This document shows positions 32,327-36,502 of a stretch of 50,217 nt of DNA, piece by piece. The notes beneath the pieces are model-generated. The model did not search any database, was not told where the DNA came from, and saw only the letters and a program-made list of their open reading frames with translations. The position numbers and the translations under genes are program-made. Position 1 is the first letter of the stretch; each line of letters starts with the position of its first letter. The stretch is from an uncultured archaeon (GTDB taxonomy: Archaea; Asgardarchaeota; Heimdallarchaeia; Heimdallarchaeales; Kariarchaeaceae): the NCBI GenBank assembly GCA_964645535.1, contig CAZYCQ010000019.1, positions 1 to 50,217 on the forward strand. The letters are read 5' to 3'.

Positions 32327-34048
32327 ATGAAAAAAACACTATTCCTCCTTTGTATCTGGGTCATTTCTTCCATCTATCTCCCTTCCCATTTGGCAATGAC
32401 GACCCAATCTCTAGCATCTTCCAATCCTCAAACGGATCTCCAAGTGAATTCAACCGATGTCATTCCCTTTGTCAATGCATCTTCCCCTACTGTTGAAAGA
32501 GGTAATTCCATCTCAATCTTGATTGGCATTATAAGCAAGGAAAATACCTCTGCATATGTGGCAGGTATTCCTTTCAGTCTTTCCCTTTATGATGTGGAAC
32601 GGAACCTGACTCGATCTTTACTAAATGACACTACCATTGATGATGTCTATAATTATACTCTTGAAACATATTTTACTCCAACTCCTTTGGCAAGTGGTAC
32701 CTACATTGCAAATGTCACATTCCAATTTGTGGATGCCCTGATAGTTGCCAATACAACTTTTCAGGTAATCCTTGATCCTGATGCAAGAGTCATTTTTCAA
32801 CCAAGCCATTCCATGGTGGATTTCATTACTGTAGGGGATAATCTTACAATTGACCTGAAAATAGAGAATGTTGGTGCATCAAATGCCTTCAATATTTCTG
32901 TTAGCTTGCAATCGATTGATGAACCTGTTGGGTTAATTGCTCCGCAATTTCCATTGAAGATACCTTTGGTTCCACCTGAGGGAATTATTGTGTTCAATTT
33001 CACCGTCTCTCCTCCTAGATTTGGCGTGGGGAAACTGTCTTTCCTGACATCCTTCAGCAATGCCCAAGGAATCACTAAAGTTGGAACCACAGCCATCCTT
33101 TTCCGGATCTTACCTCGGCTTACTGGTTCTTTCTCTCCAAATACTGAACTTTTCTCTGGCAATGTCACCTCGTTCAACATACGGATAAATAATTTAGAAA
33201 ATGCGAACCTCACAATTTCATTCACTCTGACATCCGACTTGATCTCCTTCTTTTCGGATATCGATGCAAATAAACAGACACTCTTGGCAAAGGCAACACT
33301 TTCAAAATCGATTACCGGAACTGTTCTTAAAGATGGAGAGGCGACCGTTACTTTTAGGGTGGTATTCTTTGATGAAGATGGCAGTGATGCAGTAGATGTT
33401 CTGATCATTACTCAGACCGTTACAATTTCAACATCTCCAATCCGGGTGATCATCAATCAAAATCCTTCAACAATCTTGTTTTTCATCAATATATTCATCC
33501 TTGCATTTCTTTCCCTTTCAGTTATCGTTCTATATTTCAAACCCGACTTGAGAAACCAAATCTTACGACGTTTTATGGCTCCCAGCATTCCTGATTATGC
33601 ACTTGAAACACAAACGGTCATTGTCGATGGATCTAATGTGGCATGGGAGAAGCCGACTCCCGAAGGGAAAGCAGATTTGGCAAATATTGACCGGGCAATC
33701 GATAGCTTACGGCAGGCTGGTTTCAAAAAAATCATTGTTATAGCTGATGCTGCACTGAGATACCAAGTTGCAGACAGGGAGGAATTTGACAAGGCTGCCA
33801 AAAAAGGAAAGATTCATGTCATGCCTGCGAAAGTGTCCGCAGATCATTTTATCCTGCGACTTGCAAAAGACCTCAATGCAATGATTCTTTCCAATGACCT
33901 TTTCAAGGAATTCCGAGATACCCAAGATGATATCGACGAAAAGCGGATACCATTTACCATTTTCAATGGCTTAGTCTACCTTCATCCATTGGGGAAAAAA
34001 ATCGAAAAAAGAAATGAAAATCAACCTCTCCAAAATCACAAAAATTAA
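32327..34048 (+). CDS. Single-pass membrane protein: signal peptide, extracellular beta-sandwich (CARDB/S-layer-like) region, TM helix, cytoplasmic Zc3h12a/Regnase-type NYN RNase domain
   Basis: Signal peptide MKKTLFLLCIWVISS; more than 10 N-x-S/T sequons; LKIENVGASNAFNISV CARDB-like motif; TM at about 33470-33540; then VIVDGSNVA...IADAALRY...SADHFIL...ILSNDLFKEF...RIPF. Confidence 0.85.
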   Translation: MKKTLFLLCIWVISSIYLPSHLAMTTQSLASSNPQTDLQVNSTDVIPFVNASSPTVERGNSISILIGIISKENTSAYVAGIPFSLSLYDVERNLTRSLLNDTTIDDVYNYTLETYFTPTPLASGTYIANVTFQFVDALIVANTTFQVILDPDARVIFQPSHSMVDFITVGDNLTIDLKIENVGASNAFNISVSLQSIDEPVGLIAPQFPLKIPLVPPEGIIVFNFTVSPPRFGVGKLSFLTSFSNAQGITKVGTTAILFRILPRLTGSFSPNTELFSGNVTSFNIRINNLENANLTISFTLTSDLISFFSDIDANKQTLLAKATLSKSITGTVLKDGEATVTFRVVFFDEDGSDAVDVLIITQTVTISTSPIRVIINQNPSTILFFINIFILAFLSLSVIVLYFKPDLRNQILRRFMAPSIPDYALETQTVIVDGSNVAWEKPTPEGKADLANIDRAIDSLRQAGFKKIIVIADAALRYQVADREEFDKAAKKGKIHVMPAKVSADHFILRLAKDLNAMILSNDLFKEFRDTQDDIDEKRIPFTIFNGLVYLHPLGKKIEKRNENQPLQNHKN

Positions 34049-34072
34049 ACAAGCATTGACCAGAGACAGTTG

Positions 34073-35662
34073 ATGAAGATCAACATTTTCTTATTGCTGT
34101 TGCTGATCGGTCTCTCTCTAGTTCCTTTCACCACAGCCGCCCCAAACCAAACTTCACCCAACGTTGTTTTGATGATTGGCGATGGCATGGGGCCAGAACA
34201 GATAAAGCTTGCCAGTCTAGTGGAATATGGAACACCCAATGGTTCAATCATGCAAACCGAATTTCCGATTGCATCTCAATATGTTACCAATAACATAGAC
34301 GGAAAAATAACTGATAGTGCAGCAGGTGGCAGTGCAATTGCAACCGGGCAGCTCACTGCAAATGGTGTCATTTCAATGGATGAAACAAAGAGTATTCGGG
34401 TTAAGACGATTTTGGAATACCTGAAAGATGACTTTGGTTATGCAACAGGTTTGATCACCACCACAGAATTTGCCCATGCGACACCTGCCGTTTTCGGAAG
34501 CCATACCACAAATAGGGACAATAAAGAAGCTATTCGTGACCAATTGCTTTCAAGCGGTATCGATCTCATTCTCGGCGGAGGAAAAGAGGTGTCTTATGTG
34601 GGTGGGGCAGATGCCGCAAAAAGTCTAGGCGAAAGCTATGGTTACACCACGATTACTTCGAGAAACGAATTATTGACAATACCCCTTTCTTCATCCAAAA
34701 TTTTTGGTGTATTTGGAACTACAAACATGCCATATGAATTGGAACGTGATCCCTCCATCGATCCCAGTATCGTGGAAATGACCGACAAAGGACTGGAATT
34801 TCTCTCTCAAAAGGGAAACCCCTTCTTTCTCATGATTGAGGGCGGACGGATTGACCATGCTGGACATATGGTCAACAGTAATGAAAACAAGACGCTTTAC
34901 AATGTTATGGAAACAATCATGTTTGAAAAAGCAGTGCGAAGAGTTCTGGATTTCGCAAAGCAGGATGGAAACACGATTGTTGTTGTGGCTGCCGATCACG
35001 AAACCGGTGGTTTGCAAGTTTATGACTATTCTGGTCTTGATGCCACTCTCCCTAGCGAAGACCTTTCCCGAGATGAAAACAATCAGATCAGGATGAGAAG
35101 AGTGGCTGAAATAAATGCTTCATTTTCCACAAATAGTCACACGGATACACCTGTCTACTTCTTCGGTTATGGGTCGGATTTTGGTGACGTTATCGTTGAT
35201 ACCATCGATGATGTGTTTTGGGCAATCAACGGTGCTTTAGGAAAGTTCCCAACGGTTCGAAATGATCGTTTTACCATAGAAGACACAACCATCAAATACA
35301 GCTTCGAGATAATGGATCTGGATAATTCTGCAGAATCCTACGAAATTGTCCAGATATTTGAAAATGGCACCAAACTAAGCTCTGGCAACATCTCAATTGC
35401 TGATCTCTCTCAAAACAACCAATTTGAGTATTCATTCCCCAGTCCCGAAACCAATGATTCTGTGGTCTTTTTTGTCAAGGTCCATGATTCTTCCATATCC
35501 ATTAGTTCCCTTTCAAAGACCTATCTATCTCTTCCTCCAACAAACCAGGCCACAACCGACCAAACAACAGACCTGAACTTTCCAATTTGGGTGATTTGCC
35601 TATCTTCAATCCCCTTAATTCGCCGAAAGACCGGAAAGAAATTCCTTAAGATGCTTCACTAA
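34073..35662 (+). CDS. Secreted/surface-anchored alkaline phosphatase
   Basis: Signal peptide; MIGDGMG, TDSAA (catalytic Ser), HATPA, EGGRIDHAGH, ADHETGG, SHT; Thr-rich linker then a hydrophobic segment and RRK. Confidence 0.92.
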   Translation: MKINIFLLLLLIGLSLVPFTTAAPNQTSPNVVLMIGDGMGPEQIKLASLVEYGTPNGSIMQTEFPIASQYVTNNIDGKITDSAAGGSAIATGQLTANGVISMDETKSIRVKTILEYLKDDFGYATGLITTTEFAHATPAVFGSHTTNRDNKEAIRDQLLSSGIDLILGGGKEVSYVGGADAAKSLGESYGYTTITSRNELLTIPLSSSKIFGVFGTTNMPYELERDPSIDPSIVEMTDKGLEFLSQKGNPFFLMIEGGRIDHAGHMVNSNENKTLYNVMETIMFEKAVRRVLDFAKQDGNTIVVVAADHETGGLQVYDYSGLDATLPSEDLSRDENNQIRMRRVAEINASFSTNSHTDTPVYFFGYGSDFGDVIVDTIDDVFWAINGALGKFPTVRNDRFTIEDTTIKYSFEIMDLDNSAESYEIVQIFENGTKLSSGNISIADLSQNNQFEYSFPSPETNDSVVFFVKVHDSSISISSLSKTYLSLPPTNQATTDQTTDLNFPIWVICLSSIPLIRRKTGKKFLKMLH

Positions 35663-36502
35663 TTCTTCAGGTTTATCTTCCTGAAGAAAATGACCCGCAT
35701 TGTCTATAGGAACAAATCTAGATCTGGCTAAACGTTTTGCAAATTCCCTCCCTTCCTCTTGCTTGAAAACAGGGTCTTTGTCTGAAAACATCACAAGGGA
35801 CGGAATGTCAATGGATTCCAACTTACTGAAAATCTGCAAAAAGATAGGATGATTTTCATGATTCTTGGTTGTCGGAATCATTTTCGGAAATGCTGCGATC
35901 CCCGCACGGGTTTCAGGAGAATTGTTTGCAGACAGATACACTTGCAGATCTGCATCATCAAGCTTATTCACCAATCCTTTTTCGAAGGCGGTTTTCTGGA
36001 AATACCCATTCAGCAGAAGTTTTTTTGATAAAGGTCCTGTAAACGCAAATTTGAATAACAGGGGAATGTCCACCACTGGTTTTGTCATGGTGTTCATGGC
36101 GACAAACCCTCGATATCTCTTCATGTCACGTACCAAGGCACCAAAGCCTATTGGTCCTCCCCAATCTTGAGCAATCAAAACCACGTTTTCTAAATCCAAA
36201 TCCTGAATAAAGCCTTCAACCATTCCAAGATGCATTTCAAATGTGTAAAAGTCAATGGAAGATGGCTTTGCCGAAGCTCCAAAACCAATCAAGTCTGGAG
36301 CAATGCATCGGTATTCCTTTGACAAAGAATCAATTAACTTGCGGTAAAGATAGGCTGATGTCGGATTTCCATGTAACATCAACAAATTGAGGTCACCCGA
36401 TCCTTGATCGAGATAGTGAACCTTGTGACCGTTTATTTCCATGTAATTTCGTGAAATCGAGAAATTGGGAGGATAGGGATCCATTTGTCTGACCAAAAAC
36501 AT
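35615..36502 (-). CDS. Haloalkane dehalogenase-like alpha/beta hydrolase
   Basis: LHGNPT, APDLIGFGAS, nucleophile QDWGG, DPVF, AGHFLQED. Confidence 0.88.
   Translation of the reverse strand: MFLVRQMDPYPPNFSISRNYMEINGHKVHYLDQGSGDLNLLMLHGNPTSAYLYRKLIDSLSKEYRCIAPDLIGFGASAKPSSIDFYTFEMHLGMVEGFIQDLDLENVVLIAQDWGGPIGFGALVRDMKRYRGFVAMNTMTKPVVDIPLLFKFAFTGPLSKKLLLNGYFQKTAFEKGLVNKLDDADLQVYLSANNSPETRAGIAAFPKMIPTTKNHENHPIFLQIFSKLESIDIPSLVMFSDKDPVFKQEEGREFAKRLARSRFVPIDNAGHFLQEDKPEELVKHLKEFLSGLSAN

Follow-up and report, generated by a model that had tools for sequence, protein, structure and literature searches.

The window analysed here is a 50,217-nucleotide contig of an uncultured archaeon of the order Heimdallarchaeales (GenBank assembly GCA_964645535.1, contig CAZYCQ010000019.1, forward strand), and the gene in question, at 32327-34048 on its plus strand, encodes a protein predicted to join an ectodomain of three immunoglobulin (Ig)-like domains, a single transmembrane (TM) helix and a cytoplasmic NYN ribonuclease (RNase) domain of the Regnase-1 type. 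With a probability of roughly 0.7, we read this protein as an active membrane-tethered cytoplasmic RNase with a conserved cellular function. An earlier note on the same DNA had proposed a type-I receptor whose output is RNA cleavage, and of this proposal the anatomy and the conserved catalytic residues stand.

The gene is one open reading frame (ORF) of 573 codons plus stop, its orthologues are full length and its start is well defined, only five codons being open upstream of the ATG. Its parts, with the evidence for each (AlphaFold2, AF2, models being rated by the predicted local distance difference test, pLDDT), are as follows.

32327..34048, plus strand: whole coding sequence, with signal peptide, three Ig-like domains, TM helix and NYN RNase domain (ORF list, translation, orthologues in 39 of 46 genomes of the order).
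32327..32398, plus strand: Sec-type signal peptide, residues 1-24, with an MKK n-region, a hydrophobic core at 5-23 and a c-region in which the inferred cleavage site separates HLA from MT (hydropathy scan).
32459..32770, plus strand: predicted ectodomain beta-sandwich 1, residues 45-148, with eight N-glycosylation sequons (AF2, pLDDT about 90; sequon positions).
32789..33109, plus strand: predicted ectodomain beta-sandwich 2, residues 155-261, CARDB-like, with three sequons (AF2; sub-threshold Pfam CARDB and TRAP_beta; profile matches to CARDB-repeat proteins).
33119..33427, plus strand: predicted ectodomain beta-sandwich 3, residues 265-367, membrane-proximal, with two sequons (AF2; Foldseek on the ectodomain).
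33464..33538, plus strand: predicted single TM helix, residues 380-404, with its hydrophobic core at 383-401 (Kyte-Doolittle 2.84; helix in the AF2 model).
33539..33607, plus strand: basic juxtamembrane linker, residues 405-427, with a predicted helix at 406-417 (AF2 secondary structure; sequence).
33608..33994, plus strand: Zc3h12a-type NYN (PIN-like) RNase domain, residues 428-556 (PF11977, profile against the PDB, AF2, Foldseek, conservation, substitution rates).
Within the NYN domain, plus strand: putative catalytic positions D434 (33626-33628), N437, D474 (33746-33748), D506 (33842-33844), N523/D524 (33893-33898) and E528.
33995..34045, plus strand: C-terminal tail, residues 557-573, short and variable in the alignment (pLDDT below 50 over 554-573).

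The domain that carries our reading is the cytoplasmic one, which is, on the agreement of sequence profiles and models, a homologue of the Zc3h12a/Regnase-type NYN nucleases. PF11977 (RNase_Zc3h12a), the only Pfam family found in the cytoplasmic part, is matched over residues 428-551 at 61.9 bits, where the cutoff is 23 (E 7.8e-17), and the genome search scored it at 64.6 bits. A profile built from 118 prokaryotic homologues and run against the PDB retrieved ZC3H12C, ZC3H12B, ZC3H12A and KHNYN at E-values of 1e-16 to 1e-13, the best match being ZC3H12C at 3.5e-16, with PRORP2 at 5e-9. When modelled alone, the domain reaches a pLDDT of 94 in AF2, and the top 23 Foldseek matches of this model in the PDB are all ZC3H12A/B/C or KHNYN (TM-score 0.69-0.77, E down to 1.8e-9), PRORP coming next. 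The similarity to Zc3h12a enzymes that had been proposed from motifs alone is thereby borne out by profile and fold, and the motifs themselves lie where they had been placed, VIVDGSNVA at 431-439, SADHFIL at 504-510, ILSNDLFKEF at 520-529 and RIPF at 540-543.

Residues were mapped by aligning the profile with the ZC3H12A-C chains, and the numbering of Regnase-1 follows in part PMC5499597. In this alignment, the Regnase-1 catalytic set D141, N144, D226, S242, D244 and D248 is matched by D434, N437, D506, S522, D524 and E528, respectively, while N523 falls on N243 and A505 on D225. D434, N437, D474, D506, N523 and D524 are present in 38 of 38 full-length family members and E528 in 36, and the matched catalytic set, S522 included, varies little or not at all among them; across the 118 prokaryotic NYN domains, D434, N437, D506 and D524 never vary and D474 and N523 reach at least 90% conservation. 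The first Asp of the DD pair, D225 in Regnase-1, is missing, as had been seen in the window protein, where it is replaced by Ala: position 505 is Ala in 13 and Gly in 25 of the 38 members, and Ala is also the consensus residue there among the 118 prokaryotic homologues (motif xAD). D474, which aligns to a Pro in the ZC3H12 proteins, comes directly after strand 2 (this strand covers residues 44-49 of the domain model and D474 is residue 50). In PIN-like nucleases, the active site sits at the C-terminal edge of the parallel sheet. Because of its placement at the C-terminal end of strand 2, we infer that this clade-specific acid substitutes for the one that is missing at the D225 position.

The loss of the D225 equivalent in all 38 members, together with the lack of an accessory RNA-binding domain by Pfam, could also be taken to mean that the NYN domain has become a non-catalytic RNA- or protein-docking module of a structural or adhesion surface protein. 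This we consider most unlikely, since pseudoenzymes normally lose their metal-binding residues, whereas the other such positions here are invariant in the 38 members and essentially so in the 118 prokaryotic homologues, D474 supplies one more invariant acid and the ratio of nonsynonymous to synonymous substitution rates (dN/dS) of the NYN domain is about 0.03. The pattern of residues points instead to an active Mg2+/Mn2+-dependent endoribonuclease, and every characterised PF11977 and PRORP enzyme known to us acts on RNA.

A membrane protein with an extracytoplasmic domain, a single TM helix and a cytoplasmic output domain is what sequence and model predict around this nuclease. The N-terminus has the look of a signal peptide (MKK, then a core at residues 5-23 with a Kyte-Doolittle value of 1.81, then HLA and MT around the putative cleavage site), and a basic stretch followed by a hydrophobic run opens all 20 of the orthologue ORFs that were taken for codon analysis; of the full-length representatives, the roughly 26 beyond the 11 homologues described below combine a signal-like N-terminus with a single TM segment. 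The core of the TM helix, residues 383-401, corresponds to nucleotides 33473-33529, inside the range of about 33470-33540 that had been given for it, and the expected basic residues follow, with four Lys/Arg in the 15 residues after the helix and one before it. The same bias, three to five after and none or one before, is seen in most of the 11 homologues in which the scan placed the helix correctly, and these too have a signal peptide and a single TM segment. The N-x-S/T sequons, of which more than ten had been claimed, number 13 between residues 25 and 382, versus 5.4 +/- 2.0 in 5000 shuffles (P about 0.0004); the C-terminal 169 residues, the presumed cytoplasmic part, have none, and over 33 members of the family their density is 3.13 per 100 residues in the ectodomain versus 0.37 in the cytoplasmic part. 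As the signal-like N-terminus, the positive-inside flanks and the concentration of sequons agree, we infer a type-I single-pass protein with its N-terminal part outside and the NYN domain inside. The ectodomain is probably N-glycosylated.

Outside the membrane, the roughly 350 residues that had been described as beta-rich are resolved by AF2 into three beta-sandwiches (45-148, 155-261 and 265-367), with a pLDDT mostly around 90. The CARDB-like motif noticed earlier fares less evenly. In Pfam, CARDB on the second domain stays below threshold (residues 160-201, 17.2 bits versus a cutoff of 22.7), as does TRAP_beta, while the family profile also picks up giant surface proteins made of CARDB or HYDIN-type Ig repeats and shape searches of the ESM Atlas with the ectodomain lead to clusters of CARDB / COG1361 'S-layer family' proteins. 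Foldseek matches of the three-domain array include the integrin alpha-V ectodomain, alpha-2-macroglobulin, complement C3 and chains of the ciliary central apparatus; its output gives whole chains only, and we take these matches to fall on their Ig-like leg or MG arrays. Taken as modelled, the ectodomain is thus a generic Ig-like surface array of the CARDB/S-layer type. Pfam, Foldseek and the ESM Atlas shape searches revealed in it no recognised fold of a ligand or small-molecule sensor, and NCBIfam gave no meaningful match for the protein. Among the best 150 matches of an exhaustive profile search, none combines the same ectodomain with a different cytoplasmic output, those that match by the ectodomain only being fragments or giant CARDB-repeat proteins.

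The profile search found the whole architecture in about 35 cluster representatives (at 50% identity), 538-623 residues long, out of a total of about 2,800 proteins, most of the best 150 matching through the NYN domain alone. In the databases, these proteins are called 'hypothetical protein' or 'RNase NYN domain-containing protein', and the named records belong to metagenome-assembled genomes (MAGs) of Heimdallarchaeota, among them Ca. Heimdallarchaeum aukensis and Ca. Heimdallarchaeum endolithica, whose genomes are closed, in keeping with the Asgard-like host that had been guessed from the letters. In a genome panel that includes the two closed genomes, 39 of 46 Heimdallarchaeales genomes have the full-length gene, mostly in single copy; six of the seven without it are less than 90% complete and the seventh is 90% complete. 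No full-length gene was found in the other orders and families of the class represented in the panel (0 of 22 and 0 of 12 genomes in the two large families). A search of Asgard genomes for the architecture, which the earlier note had called for, gave the same picture in a sample of 201 genomes of the phylum, with the full-length gene in 28 of 31 genomes of the order versus none of about 170 others. Since dozens of independent MAGs and two closed genomes have the ORF unbroken, an assembly chimera, which had been named as a possible undoing of the proposal, is ruled out. In a tree of prokaryotic sequences, the family's NYN domains group together as a single long-stemmed clade (SH-aLRT 99) for which no sister group was resolved; the region search gave no eukaryotic proteins. 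The gene is one old fusion that has been inherited vertically as part of the core genome of Heimdallarchaeales. Two genomes of the order, G001 (C183:9773-11323 and C55:4285-5853) and MAG CSMAG_1930 (L015 and L043), have two full-length paralogues, nearly all others having one, and a second PF11977 gene of the genome studied here (G000:C12:25385-25741, minus strand, which is L002:1483-2016, minus strand; a 177-residue ORF, 32.5 bits) lies outside the membrane family. DNA of the locus is present in two runs of one hot-spring metagenome study, and no RNA run is listed with it.

Selection has acted on both halves of the protein. Nei-Gojobori estimates by region, made on 20 orthologues drawn from two of the order's genera (pairs with dS 0.13-1.1), give a dN/dS of 0.008-0.064 for the NYN domain versus 0.06-0.56, typically 0.15-0.35, for the ectodomain; the pairs are non-independent, and a region-wide method would miss diversifying selection at the level of sites. 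Pairwise identities (0.55 for the NYN domain versus 0.20-0.23 for the ectodomain) are in line with these values. Both regions are under purifying selection, with a constraint on the NYN domain about ten times stronger.

In the window, the gene is flanked by a DUF4147/MOFRL gene on one side and by the gene of a secreted alkaline phosphatase on the other, an order shared by closer relatives until the identity of the NYN protein falls to about 38%, not beyond; adjacency to the alkaline phosphatase is limited to loci L006-L008 and L088, all labelled Heimdallarchaeota. Further family members adjoin unrelated genes, and the residual region shared among members comprises glutamate synthase and two MIPS genes. 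A conserved operon or partner gene can be dismissed, the neighbourhoods differing among members. The alkaline phosphatase (34070-35662, plus strand, 21 nt downstream; PF00245, E 6e-63) carries a signal peptide of its own, about 190 extra C-terminal residues rich in sequons and a hydrophobic C-terminal anchor followed by RRKTGKK, and the 3' end of its gene shares 48 nt with that of a convergent alpha/beta-hydrolase gene (35615-36502, minus strand). In Ca. H. aukensis, a short Cas12f1-like_TNB (TnpB-type) fragment (L003:5227-5547) lies just upstream of the orthologue, which may explain the loss of synteny in that species.

This setting bears on the suggestion, also made earlier, of antiviral or abortive defence, in which the ectodomain would be contacted by a virus or would itself be a decoy receptor and the nuclease would destroy the entering viral nucleic acid or host RNA. 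The eukaryotic enzymes Regnase-1, KHNYN and N4BP1 do have antiviral roles; a nuclease at the membrane behind a surface domain that diverges as fast as the identities above indicate would suit such a device, and among the NYN relatives there are fusions to STAND-like NTPase and TPR modules, which are often met in conflict systems. However, nearly every genome of the order has the gene, mostly in one copy, its neighbours are metabolic housekeeping genes with some residual synteny, no integrase or defence gene lies near the locus, PADLOC gave no meaningful match for the protein and the dN/dS of the ectodomain stays far under 1, so that no arms race shows at the scale of the gene. With no catalogued match, no patchy spread and no island context, the protein does not have the marks of a known defence system, and for this single-copy, vertically inherited core gene we regard a defence function as improbable.

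How a membrane-tethered RNase of this kind might work can be outlined as follows. The Sec signal peptide would export about 350 residues, which would fold outside into the three CARDB-like Ig-fold domains, and the one TM helix would anchor the protein, leaving its C-terminal 170 residues in the cytoplasm. There, the metal-binding set D434, N437, D506, N523/D524 and E528, together with D474, would support Mg2+/Mn2+-dependent RNA cleavage. As the linker places the NYN domain about 25 residues away from the membrane (AF2 secondary structure and sequence) and there is no accessory RNA-binding domain, the substrates would most likely be RNAs that come near the inner face of the membrane, for example mRNAs under translation at the Sec translocon, so that specificity would come from location. 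The ectodomain, being conserved and selectively constrained, probably sets where or when the RNase acts, either by anchoring or clustering it in the envelope or by binding an external macromolecule. Several points weigh against this account. A plain tether would not need a conserved three-domain ectodomain of 350 residues, which a 'localised RNase' explains loosely; the canonical acid at the Regnase-1 D225 position is lacking, its replacement by D474 being deduced from position; Pfam finds no accessory RNA-binding domain; and the predicted topology is drawn from hydropathy, the positive-inside rule and sequon bias.

The protein is not the only one in which this type of NYN domain has been put at a membrane. 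P0086/P0172, of roughly 205 residues, have nothing but an anchor at the N-terminus and a basic stretch ahead of the NYN domain. In P0056/P0170, from MAGs of Thermofilaceae archaea (Thermoproteota), a signal peptide, an unassigned ectodomain of roughly 220 residues, a TM helix and a possible coiled coil precede the NYN domain, and in a 670-residue protein of Promethearchaeota archaeon H2M.186 (L046:3029-5038, plus strand) a signal peptide and a PQQ/BamB-type beta-propeller are followed by a TM helix, HKKK and the NYN domain. Soluble relatives have TPR or STAND-like NTPase modules ahead of the NYN domain. Judged from these sequences, membrane tethering is recurrent in this NYN clade and the type-I layout has been built with at least three unrelated outer modules. 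A PQQ-type propeller is also found with protein-kinase Pfam domains (PF00069/PF07714) in P0264 and P0272, which suggests that receptor-kinase-like proteins make use of this outer module too.

It is in part from such comparisons that the case for a true receptor ribonuclease draws its strength. In that event, binding of the ectodomain to a ligand, an envelope component, a neighbouring cell or a particle would alter the oligomeric state across the TM helix and switch the NYN domain on or off. The ectodomain architecture is order-wide and under purifying selection, the TM-NYN unit is joined to at least three unrelated outer modules (three CARDB-like domains, the PQQ-type propeller and the Thermofilaceae region of about 220 residues), and signalling proteins typically pair a constant output with a variable sensor. 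The occurrence of PQQ-type propellers on kinases (P0264, P0272) and the place of the same NYN clade as a C-terminal module after TPR and STAND-like NTPase modules in soluble relatives fit this scenario as well, as does the dependence of Regnase-1 PIN activity on dimerisation. Nevertheless, the outer part has no recognised ligand-binding sensor fold and is a generic array of CARDB/S-layer-type Ig domains, the propeller and Thermofilaceae forms are rare (three close clusters, P0078, P0178 and P0179, for the former and one cluster of three sequences for the latter), the bare-anchor forms are evidence that a function can consist in tethering alone, regulated oligomerisation is without support and no conserved partner gene was found. 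A homodimer prediction for residues 375-556 scored 0.05 (mark 0.42) and weighs neither way. The receptor step of the earlier note is therefore set back by the generic Ig array and the missing partner gene, and it is favoured in part because the ectodomain is under purifying selection and TM-NYN recurs behind unrelated ectodomains. Gating of the RNase by the ectodomain is plausible, but as a full account of the protein a true receptor seems to us doubtful. Equally tentative is the wider notion of an archaeal class of 'receptor ribonucleases', in which interchangeable outer modules would drive clustering of the NYN domain and an external or envelope signal would lead to cleavage of membrane-proximal RNAs. 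To our knowledge, eukaryotic IRE1 is so far the one protein for which signalling of this sort has been characterised.

Comparison with IRE1 (lumenal sensor, TM helix, kinase and KEN RNase) had been offered as one of logic rather than descent, and in that form it is valid. Both proteins would be type-I and single-pass, with a cytoplasmic endoribonuclease close to the membrane, but there is no homology: Pfam finds neither a kinase nor a KEN/HEPN (Ribonuc_2-5A) domain in the window protein, whose cytoplasmic part contains PF11977 only and which is thus no member of the IRE1 family, and the ectodomain fold is different. IRE1 is regulated by oligomerisation, whereas for the window protein the likeness rests on layout. 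The homologues by fold are the eukaryotic Zc3h12a-type RNases (Regnase-1/MCPIP1, which is ZC3H12A, ZC3H12B-D, KHNYN and N4BP1; PF11977), which belong to the same hidden Markov model family, have the same catalytic fold (Foldseek TM-score 0.73-0.77) and share with the window protein the DGSN, D, SND and D/E motifs and a C-terminal RIPF-type beta-hairpin. These enzymes are soluble proteins equipped with CCCH zinc fingers or KH domains, whereas the NYN domain of the window protein stands behind a signal peptide, three Ig-like domains and a TM helix, has Ala or Gly at the D225 position and an invariant D474 where ZC3H12 proteins have Pro. As the features at 505 and 474 are common to bacterial and archaeal homologues, the sequence places the window protein in the prokaryotic group of PF11977 and not in a eukaryote-like subgroup. 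Direct descent of the eukaryotic Regnase-type enzymes from it finds no support in these data, because it carries the prokaryotic signatures and the gene was not found in other orders of the class.

RNases at the cytoplasmic face of the membrane are familiar from bacteria, where RNase Y has an N-terminal TM segment followed by KH and HD domains and RNase E is membrane-bound. PIN-TRAM proteins of the PIN.COG4956 group carry four TM helices (PMC5499597). All three have an RNase or PIN-like domain at that face, and their location probably restricts their substrates, but they are bacterial, have other folds (HD, RNase E) or belong to another PIN subgroup and have no large extracytoplasmic domain; the layout of RNase Y is nearer to the bare-anchor P0086/P0172 than to the window protein. 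On the outer side, the closest parallels are archaeal CARDB / COG1361 'S-layer family' proteins, which have tandem sequon-rich CARDB-like beta-sandwiches followed by a TM anchor. Those examined (P0121, P0153) stop at a short membrane anchor and carry no enzyme in the cytoplasm, whereas the anchor of the window protein runs into a 170-residue RNase domain. A survey of PIN-like nucleases put Zc3h12a-type NYN domains in the PRORP group, listed the bacterial PF11977 members as of unknown function and counted only 23 archaeal sequences (Matelska et al., 2017; PMC5499597). Full-text literature searches found no paper on the present ectodomain-TM-NYN architecture. The catalytic family and the kind of ectodomain module are known; of their combination no description was found.

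We know of no membrane-bound endoribonuclease that has been characterised in archaea, and of no characterised archaeal or bacterial pathway that leads straight from the cell surface to RNA cleavage. The protein is a tractable target, its 170-residue cytoplasmic domain being modelled with high confidence and the point mutants to be made being clear (D434, D474, D506 and D524). Its gene belongs to the conserved core of Heimdallarchaeales, whose class is the one nearest to eukaryotes among the archaea, and the protein uses the catalytic domain of Regnase-1, KHNYN and N4BP1. If active, it would define where part of the RNA decay happens in Heimdallarchaeales cells, and if the ectodomain gates the RNase, this would represent a new signalling principle outside eukaryotes.

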